This document shows, one piece after another, positions 15,001-17,115 of a stretch of 17,115 nucleotides of DNA. The stretch lies in the IMG/VR virus record IMGVR_UViG_2695420820_000005; one strand, written 5' to 3'. A program made the position numbers. Position 1 is the stretch's first letter, and the number at the start of each line of letters is the position of its first letter. The DNA is from a virus. Its lineage: Duplodnaviria > Heunggongvirae > Uroviricota > Caudoviricetes.

Positions 15001-17115
15001 AGCTTTACACCTCGGCTCATCCTCCTGCAGAGTTTTATCCAGTCGGTGCACCAATCCCGTGGCCATCAGATACCGTTCCGTCTGGTTATGCCCTGATGCA
15101 GGGGCAGACTTTTGACAAATCTGCTTACCCGAAACTTGCAGCCGCTTATCCGTCAGGCGTGATCCCTGATATGCGTGGCTGGACGATTAAGGGCAAGCCC
15201 GCCAGTGGTCGTGCCGTATTGTCTCAGGAACAGGATGGCATTAAATCGCACACCCACAGCGCCAGCGCATCCAGTACGGATTTGGGGACGAAAACCACAT
15301 CGTCGTTTGATTACGGCACTAAATCCACGAATAACACCGGGGCGCATACGCACAGTCTGAGCGGCTCTACAAGTTCAGCTGGGGCCCACCAACATAGTCA
15401 GACTGGGCCCAGAACGAATAGCGGGAGTCAACCTACTGGAATGTTTCCGGCAGGGAGTACTCAAGTTAGCGGGACTAATCAGGTTGGTATCAGTGGCTCA
15501 TTAACCAGTGGCACCTCCCAATGGGTAGGTAAATCATCTTCAGAAGGAAACCATACACACTCACTGTCCGGCACAGCAGCATCTGCGGGTGCACACGCGC
15601 ATACTGTCGGTATTGGTGCTCATACGCACTCTGTTGCGATTGGTTCACATGGACACACCATCACCGTTAACGCTGCTGGTAACGCGGAAAACACCGTCAA
15701 AAACATCGCATTTAACTATATTGTGAGGCTCGCATAATGGCATTCAGAATGAGTGAACAAGCACGGACCATAAAAATTTATAACCTGCTGGCCGGAACTA
15801 ATGAATTTATTGGTGAAGGTGACGCATATATTCCGCCTCATACAGGTCTGCCTGCAAACAGTACCGATATTGCACCGCCAGATATTCCGGCTGGTTTCGT
15901 GGCTGTTTTCAACAGTGATGAGTCATCGTGGCATCTCGTTGAAGATCATCGGGGTAAAACGGTTTATGACGTGGCTTCCGGCGACGCGTTATTTATTTCT
16001 GAACTCGGCTCATTACCGGAAAATGTCACCTGGTTATCCCCGGAAGGGGAGTTTCAGAAGTGGAACGGCACAGCCTGGGTGAAGGATACGGAAGCAGAAA
16101 AACTGTTCCGGATCCGGGAGGCGGAAGAAACAAAAAACAGCCTGATGCAGGTAGCCAGTGAGCATATAGCGCCGCTTCAGGATGCTGTGGATCTGGAGAT
16201 CGCAACGGAGAAAGAAACCTTGTTGCTGGAAGCTTGGAAAAAGTATCGGGTGTTGCTGAACCGTGTTGATACATCAACTGCACCGGATATTGAATGGCCA
16301 GTAGCACCTATAGGGTAAATTCGTAATGATTACCTAAATACGTTATTCTTTTGTTAAAAAAGTGATTTTGCTATAGGTAGGGAGTATGTTCTTGGATTAA
16401 GAATAAAAAATCGCCATGAAAGAGCTTCATGGCGAGTACATAAACGTACAAAATGTGATGAAAGTAGAGTGGCGTAAGCCACTATATTAAGATATGACAA
16501 TAGCGAAGAAAAGTAAATAACATTTTATGGACGTTTAATTGTTAATTATAAAAACTAGAGTGCCCGATATTGTTTATCTTGCTTTAAAATAATGTACTCA
16601 AACCAAATTTTTGAGCTAAAAGCTCAAATAATATAAATGCAATAATAATGTTTAATAAGACAATTAGCTTGCTTTGTATTTTCATTTCGGAATACTGTTA
16701 AGTAACTTTGATGACCCTAACAATAGATCGGAATTTTCTTAGAGTCAATGGTCACTGTTTTTGCTTGCAAAGCAAATGTTTTGGTGGTTATAAGTCGTCT
16801 TAATATAGTCACGCATGCAACTTGTTCCATGCGGAGATTAAAGATTGGAATATAACGCGAAGATGGAATTAAATTACATTTGCAATAATTAATTTATTAT
16901 TACTCAATAATTACCGATATTATTATTGTAAATTAATCATTAGAATGCAAAAAGAAATGTAACGGCAAAATAAGAGGACGATAGCTGAGAAAAAAGCGTG
17001 CTTTCCCAATCTGGGGCAAATCACGTCTGAATGACACCTGAAAACAGGTGGTAGCCTCAAGAAGGCTGGTGATGCTGCCAACTTACTGATTTAGTGTATG
17101 ATGGTGTTTTTGAGG

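Follow-up and report, generated by a model that had tools for sequence, protein, structure and literature searches.

The DNA analysed here, which we call the window, is a 17,115-nucleotide (nt) stretch of IMG/VR virus record IMGVR_UViG_2695420820_000005, assigned to the Caudoviricetes, with a lambdoid tail module near its end. Between the last tail gene, tfa, and the edge of an IS1 element lie 749 bases (positions 16319-17067), and these are the subject of our study. We find that they form a mosaic of three unrelated pieces and not a single element, and that the largest piece, a cargo cassette, probably hides an unannotated 33-codon gene for a small membrane peptide resembling the YncL protein of Escherichia coli. 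The features of this region, numbered as in the window, are as follows.

12648-15737: stf, part of the lambdoid tail module near the window end
15737-16318: tfa, encoding 193 amino acids (aa), with a match to Pfam Caudo_TAP
16319-16896 (578 bp): AT-rich cargo cassette, with the anatomy of a moron, common to different prophage types
16401-16435, minus strand: intrinsic terminator pointing leftward, a stem-loop at 16435-16411 followed by TTTTTTATTC
16436-16500, minus strand: predicted structured 3' untranslated region, with a hairpin at 16483-16468, an AU-rich linker and a small hairpin at 16449-16436
16584-16685, minus strand: yncL-like small open reading frame (ORF), 33 codons at 16685-16587 plus TAA, product MKIQSKLIVLLNIIIAFILFELLAQKFGLSTLF
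16720-16748, minus strand: candidate sigma-70-like promoter, TTGACT-17 nt-TATTGT, a 9-of-12 match in a consensus scan
16897-16982 (86 bp): AT-rich junction, specific to the window's type of prophage
16983-17067: first 85 bp of a prophage-end arm of about 195 bp
17068-17115, plus strand: left end of IS1, with the left inverted repeat (insA side); thousands of IS1 copies match it at 100% identity

Base composition changes abruptly behind the tail genes. Measured every 300 nt, the G+C fraction lies between 0.46 and 0.63 over the tail genes and between 0.29 and 0.35 from about position 16350 to the end of the window; overall, 16319-17067 has 31.5% G+C compared with 55% for positions 1-16318. An earlier note on this DNA had called the region AT-rich and placed it in the cargo hotspot that lies behind tfa in lambdoid prophages, and our data agree on both points, foreign composition included. 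It had further stated that the region contains no ORF of 61 aa or more and ends at an IS1. Indeed, the longest ORF with a start codon encodes 52 aa (16923-17081, minus strand, entering IS1) and the second longest 48 aa, and the left end of IS1 lies at 17068. The longest stop-free run, 58 codons, is ordinary for DNA of this composition (64 +/- 15 in shuffled sequences).

The 749-base stretch was matched in 1343 of 5426 complete E. coli genomes, in every case on the chromosome, and no annotated feature lies over it among the RefSeq matches listed. Its parts are distributed differently. Matches to at least 80% of its length occur in 280 genomes, with approximately 98.7-99.6% identity among the matches listed. 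In both full-length loci that we inspected, those of strain 104 (L002) and of an IS1-free relative (L001), the prophage occupies the lambda attachment site beside ybhB and bioA; the phages mEp332, PhiR70_1 and ev099, whose complete genomes have been deposited, carry the full arrangement too. The cassette was found in 829 of the 5426 genomes. Cassettes that match without the rest of the stretch have about 96% identity, stand behind tfaQ in prophages integrated at Qin (ydfJ), as in L003, and cease to match at query position 578. A cassette allele with some 80% identity, hereafter allele E (L004), occurs in a few genomes between two 3' fragments of tfa; fragments of this kind flank the cassette in L003 as well. 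Coverage of the 86-bp junction is confined to the 280 genomes that match at least 80% of the stretch, and we found no ORF and no RNA family match in it. Most of the 1343 genomes match the arm alone (query positions 665-749), which follows nleG-type genes in a prophage of an O26 strain and cdtABC beside zinT in another prophage.

To judge from its sequence, the cassette has the anatomy of a moron set against the late operon. Its composition is unlike that of its neighbours; its presence at a boundary of conserved genes is patchy, as it stands behind tfa in two types of prophage and is missing from most genomes that have the arm only. It also carries a clear terminator of its own and probably its own promoter, for which the evidence is a consensus match of a kind expected at chance frequency but with a conserved -35 element.

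Within the cassette, the 33-codon ORF on the minus strand bears a coding signature. We compared its copies in RefSeq loci, in 46 viral contigs with an exact 19-mer match, and in 20 metagenome loci. Start, stop and length were constant throughout the first set of 53 copies, and a single one of the later loci departed from them. Relative to the window, the ORF differs by one synonymous change in the Qin-site allele, by four synonymous changes and one non-synonymous change in a third allele, and by the substitution I18V in a fourth. Allele E differs at 18 nucleotides, distributed 7/1/10 over the three codon positions, and its peptide shows five amino-acid changes, three of which are conservative hydrophobic swaps. 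Nei-Gojobori counting for this pair gave 11 synonymous and 7 non-synonymous differences, with a dN/dS of 0.09 (Fisher p 2e-5), and none of 20,000 trials with 18 random substitutions left the ORF intact with five or fewer amino-acid changes. Insertions and deletions are common in the flanks of the cassette, including a 5-nt deletion right after the stop codon and insertions of 4 and 2 nt, and none falls inside the ORF.

Nearly all other ORFs of the cassette were rejected, as one allele or another breaks them or removes their start. Two ORFs, both short and on the plus strand, do stay open; they have acquired only non-synonymous changes (for instance, all four changes in the 24-aa ORF at 16416-16490), and were likewise set aside. 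The pair of short ORFs named in the earlier note both exist, one of 35 aa on the plus strand (16748-16855) and one on the minus strand, which occupies 16717-16830 and encodes 37 aa and not 36. Neither holds up as a gene, since the ATG is lost in alleles B and C and allele E has a frameshift or stop.

The predicted product is a single-pass membrane peptide. Its 33 residues begin with the short basic stretch MKIQSK, continue as one hydrophobic helix and include a K-F-G motif that is conserved; residues 7-24 are hydrophobic except for N12 and E21, and are flanked by K2 and K6 on one side and by K26 on the other. When searched against NCBIfam at E values up to 10, the peptides of both the window allele and allele E matched a single model, NF000537 ('stress response membrane protein YncL'), with 25.0 bits (E 1.3e-5) and 23.5 bits (E 3.7e-5), respectively, over model positions 1-28 of 30. 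As controls, YncL of E. coli K-12 scored 68.6 bits on the same model, and YohP matched its own model only and not that of YncL.

Direct comparison with the K-12 protein (b4598, MNVSSRTVVLINFFAAVGLFTLISMRFGWFI) gave a Smith-Waterman score of 60, against 20 +/- 4 for 20,000 composition-preserving shuffles (maximum 45; z about 9.7). Six other small hydrophobic E. coli peptides scored 23-29 against the window peptide. The similarity to the YncL family is specific, independent of composition, and extends over the whole peptide. Residues M1 to G28 of the window peptide align with YncL without gaps, with 10 invariant columns (M1, S5, L10, N12, A16, L19, F20, L22, F27 and G28) and a basic residue at positions 6 and 26 in both. 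The two peptides share a length of about 31-33 aa and one hydrophobic helix, and both would be made from a short monocistronic transcript with its own terminator, the transcript being a prediction in the case of the prophage peptide. They differ in that identity is only about 35% and that the prophage peptide extends two residues further at its C-terminus. The yncL gene lies between patD and ortT and has a good Shine-Dalgarno sequence; in contrast, the window ORF resides on a prophage and has none. No DNA-level similarity was found between the cassette and the yncL locus, which makes the ORF an old paralogue of yncL rather than a newly captured copy.

A search of 1.84 billion representative proteins returned only the identical peptide, unnamed and from two sources, and a frameshifted variant. 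Two exact 19-mer matches among species-representative genomes, one in a Lysobacterales and one in a Solobacterium assembly, were taken as chance. A tblastn search of phages and plasmids with the peptide gave no match, not even in phages that do carry the cassette, which we ascribe to the low-complexity filter. Pfam, PHROGs and PADLOC gave no meaningful match for any short ORF of the stretch, and our literature search found no mention of the peptide sequence or of a small membrane protein linked to tfa. As far as the searched collections show, the gene is confined to E. coli prophages and is effectively unannotated. The phage-borne member of the family is what is new here; the small-protein family and the cargo hotspot were both known, and we do not propose a new kind of system.

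Predicted signals for expression surround the ORF. From the candidate promoter, transcription would start near position 16712, approximately 27 nt ahead of the ATG; in allele E the -35 element is unchanged and the -10 element reads TATCGT. The terminator has a stem of 11 pairs, five of them G-C (terminator scan), which appears in both the minimum free energy and the centroid folds. This stem is kept across alleles, with substitutions located in the loop, the basal pair and the U-tract. The last 101 nt of the predicted transcript, comprising the hairpin, the AU-rich linker, the small hairpin and the terminator, fold with -27.1 kcal/mol compared with -11.5 +/- 2.3 kcal/mol for shuffled sequences (z = -6.8), and no other block is as well conserved between the window allele and allele E as this 3' region. 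A 25-nt imperfect inverted repeat (16468-16492/16798-16822) with a 12-nt perfect core, TCTTAATATAGT, brackets the ORF and the putative promoter. We considered a Hok-like fold-back of the 5' end onto the 3' end through this 12-nt repeat and rejected it, for the repeat is not kept in allele E and its occurrence is close to the chance level in AT-rich DNA.

We put at roughly 70% the probability that the cassette is a moron of the prophage whose product is a YncL-like peptide spanning the membrane once. Under this model, the cassette (16319-16896) would be a self-contained unit transcribed leftward, towards tfa. Its transcript of about 300 nt would begin at the promoter (16748-16720), include the ORF (16685-16587) and a 3' untranslated region of about 150 nt, and end at the terminator (16435-16401). 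Facing tfa, the terminator would stop the leftward transcript before it became antisense to tfa and the tail operon. If it acts as YncL does in E. coli, the peptide would enter the inner membrane of the lysogen, where it would reduce the membrane potential or shift the stress state of the cell. YncL is a 31-aa inner-membrane protein that is induced in minimal medium, upon heat shock and in stationary phase, and its production dissipates the membrane potential, condenses the nucleoid and lowers viability (PMC12542507); it is also a candidate substrate of RseP (PMC10470546). If the analogy holds, the prophage peptide is expected to perturb the membrane energetics of the lysogen. The gene is a plausible lysogenic-conversion factor.

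Several observations weigh against this model. The main weakness of the coding assignment is that none of the alleles has a Shine-Dalgarno sequence before the ATG (...AGTATTCCGAAATG). The NF000537 score of 25 bits lies under the curated equivalog cutoff of 35 bits, and for that reason we regard the peptide as YncL-like and not as a YncL orthologue. Searches of the 1.84 billion representative proteins and of viral, metagenome and species-representative collections yielded the same alleles only and no remoter homologue. Promoter-like sites occur in the stretch about as often as chance predicts (five found, 3.9 expected), so that the assigned promoter must be regarded as putative. Two copies depart from an intact ORF. 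In a metagenome copy of low coverage the ATG has become ATA (L125 262-264), and in the database variant P0002 a frameshift in an A/T run behind residue 26 makes a product of 43 aa. Either such copies are inactivated and rare, or the sequencing of A/T runs was at fault. The evolutionary sample is small, because there are only three or four sequence lineages, which are mutual recombinants, and the blocks of conservation partly reflect recombination. Finally, the 3' untranslated region is more conserved than the ORF, a pattern that would also fit a function at the RNA level.

This last point leads to the most serious of the rival explanations, a non-coding small RNA (sRNA) locus in which the leftward transcript of about 300 nt, or a shorter 3' RNA, would work as a riboregulator, with the ORF playing an incidental part or, in a dual-function RNA, a secondary one. 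The 3'-terminal 100 nt do look like an sRNA, with a hairpin, an AU-rich linker and a terminator with a U-tract that fold far better than shuffled sequence and form the best-conserved block, and a perfect TATAAT lies on the minus strand at 16550-16545. There is also a precedent, as the Salmonella yncL transcript was first catalogued as the sRNA STnc1110 (PMC5437024). That transcript resembles the one predicted here in being short, sRNA-like in appearance and coding for a peptide of the YncL family; it differs in coming from a chromosomal orthologue and in its dependence on sigma-S. No Rfam 15 family, however, was significant or reached its gathering threshold in the AT-rich stretch. The best match, to MicC, had 22.8 bits (E 0.37; threshold 90 bits). 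It was rejected because it falls far short of that threshold and because allele E does not keep its seed-like stretch. Esr41 reached only 15.6 bits. The 3' block offers no compensatory base changes by which its structure could be tested, and its conservation may merely reflect recombination. Moreover, a model with RNA function only leaves the bias of the ORF towards synonymous substitutions unexplained. We therefore hold a purely or mainly regulatory RNA to be unlikely. The suggestion of a small-RNA locus in the earlier note finds no known RNA family behind it, but it came near in spirit, given the short predicted transcript and the history of its Salmonella counterpart.

Two further readings seem to us very improbable. 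In one, the cassette is functionless, decayed cargo that hitch-hikes between tfa and the next real gene, and both the ORF and its likeness to YncL are coincidental. The absence of annotation among the RefSeq matches listed agrees with this, as do the ordinary length of the longest stop-free run, the missing Shine-Dalgarno sequence, and the fact that annotators of phage genomes picked differing and mutually inconsistent short ORFs. Chance is nevertheless unlikely to combine, in one cassette, a dN/dS of 0.09 (p 2e-5), an ORF free of insertions and deletions, a single family match shared by two alleles, and a strong, well-placed terminator. We also rejected the possibility of a pseudogene of a larger gene, having found no long stop-free frame and no distant DNA match in phages; the cassette may be a very old remnant. 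For positions 16897-17067, on the other hand, decay is essentially the correct explanation, since they consist of junction DNA and the arm of a fossil attachment site. The region as a whole is not simply a cargo-gene remnant, one of the readings proposed in the earlier note, in which the 33-aa minus-strand ORF with its coding signature and YncL similarity had been overlooked. The other reading, to which we give the least credence, is a type I toxin-antitoxin-like module, in which the peptide, as a hydrophobic membrane toxin restrained by an antisense or overlapping RNA, would stabilise the prophage or make infections abortive. The peptide is small and hydrophobic with a basic N-terminus, production of YncL depolarises the membrane and lowers viability, a promoter-like site on the plus strand (16494-16523) could drive an antisense RNA over the ORF, and the 12-nt inverted repeat flanks the ORF and its promoter. 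Yet the peptide matched no type I toxin model in NCBIfam or Pfam and no defence system in PADLOC. Neither the antisense promoter nor the inverted repeat is kept in allele E, each being about what chance provides in AT-rich DNA, and a hairpin internal to the ORF (16628-16610) is disrupted in that allele. No antitoxin of YncL is known.

A moron coding for a YncL-like peptide would have familiar company. The lambda genes bor and lom and HK97 gp15 are morons that encode small envelope proteins, and lom is encoded in the window as well. Like these, the cassette is DNA of foreign composition inserted into the late or tail arm. It has a terminator of its own, probably a promoter too, and specifies a small envelope protein, here a predicted one, that could be expressed from the prophage. 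It differs from them in that its 33-aa product is much smaller than Bor, Lom or gp15 and that it is bounded, in some prophages, by repeated 3' fragments of tfa. The lambdoid prophages of enterohaemorrhagic and enteropathogenic E. coli carry exchangeable cargo or effector loci downstream of their tail-fibre genes. The stretch shares with such loci its position between tail-fibre genes and attR and its build of AT-rich mosaic cassettes. The stretch contains no effector or toxin gene, and the small peptide is its sole coding candidate.

Should the peptide be produced, then some 15% of the complete E. coli genomes (829/5426) carry an unannotated prophage paralogue of a stress-response membrane peptide, a class of small genes that annotation cut-offs hide. 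A small protein would then join the prophage cargo known to alter host physiology. The region also provides a concrete case of phage cargo DNA in which cassettes, fossil attachment sites and sequence captured from the host have been put together.

How such cassettes might be exchanged is suggested by the 3' end of tfa. In prophages at the Qin site, each cargo module is followed by a direct-repeat fragment that corresponds to the last 105 nt or so of tfa. The fragments that we located are these.

L003, 5585-5688: tfa 3' fragment
L003, 6333-6421: tfa 3' fragment
L004, 5542-5646: tfa 3' fragment

Three copies of the tfa 3' end stand at fixed offsets in 16 of about 54 loci. The cargo modules look like a cassette array whose members are separated by tfa 3' repeats, and the repeats could serve as homology for the swapping of cargo. 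The Rfam family IS009 (RF02111), listed as an RNA gene, gave a 218-bit match that lies wholly inside the tfa coding sequence of the window (16080-16278). A broader proposal, which we offer tentatively and consider more doubtful than not by a wide measure, would unite these elements. It holds that the cassette represents a phage-borne branch of the YncL family devoted to lysogenic conversion, with a peptide that lowers the membrane potential or blocks injection and so confers stress tolerance or superinfection exclusion; that the branch travels in a cassette array in which the tfa 3' repeats of about 105 nt are portable homology for moron swapping; and that Rfam IS009 represents tfa 3' remnants and not an RNA gene. 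The second cargo module of the Qin-site prophages (L003 5820-6017, minus strand) encodes the annotated hypothetical protein WP_001421370.1, of 65 aa, for which neither NCBIfam nor PADLOC gave a match.

The third piece of the mosaic has a different history. In the IS1-free relative L001, the 85-base arm runs on for about 110 bases and is then followed by nt 29-90 of serU (tRNA-Ser CGA), as far as the CCA end and 97% identical to K-12. Behind this fragment stand 278 bp of host sequence, which in K-12 is found on the chromosome downstream of serU, again with 97% identity (L001 6860-7199). ARAGORN detected no complete tRNA at the serU fragment of L001. The same arm and serU fragment form the end of the cdt prophage beside zinT in L058, near the position of serU in K-12, and the serU fragment together with the adjoining host DNA is also present inside the deposited phage genomes PhiR70_1 and ev099 (L006 and L007, from 3860). 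From these sequence relationships, we infer that the serU fragment is a fossil attR carried inside the cargo region of a lambda-site prophage. An ancestral phage would have integrated at serU and, by imprecise excision, carried off the junction together with host DNA; the captured serU junction would now sit within the cargo region of phages that integrate elsewhere. In the window, IS1 lies inside the phage-side arm.

An IS1 element shows a terminal inverted repeat followed by insA. Positions 17068-17115 are identical to IS1 ends throughout E. coli, and in strain 104 (L002) the same junction continues into an annotated IS1A transposase. The same left IS1 junction is found in 10 of 46 IMG/VR contigs. 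In L002, the element lacks a 9-bp target duplication, and about 550 bp of the L001 sequence, the serU fossil included, are missing (L002 6750-7520 compared with L001 6750-7300). These two features together suggest an IS1-mediated adjacent deletion. IS1 does cut the region, as the earlier note had proposed, since IS1-free relatives continue for about 750 bp to a regulator of the AraC family resembling YdeO and GadX. What was truncated is the fossil attachment-site arm; the small gene was left untouched. The regulator (247 aa, L001 7506-8249) is closest to YdeO and GadX, with an E value of 1.9e-43 and a score under the equivalog cutoff. In the IS1-free relatives it is located some 1.5 kb behind tfa. 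It is outside the window, in whose lineage IS1 separates it from the AT-rich stretch.

Ahead of the full stf gene, the tail region of the window seems to be partly duplicated between 2927 and 12555, where we noted the following features.

2927-8725: J-like ORF, 1932 aa
8793-9392: lom
9414-9782: N-terminal fragment of stf
9936-12002: second C-terminal portion of J
12073-12555: truncated second lom

Unlike the window, L001 and L002 each contain a single J-lom-stf set.

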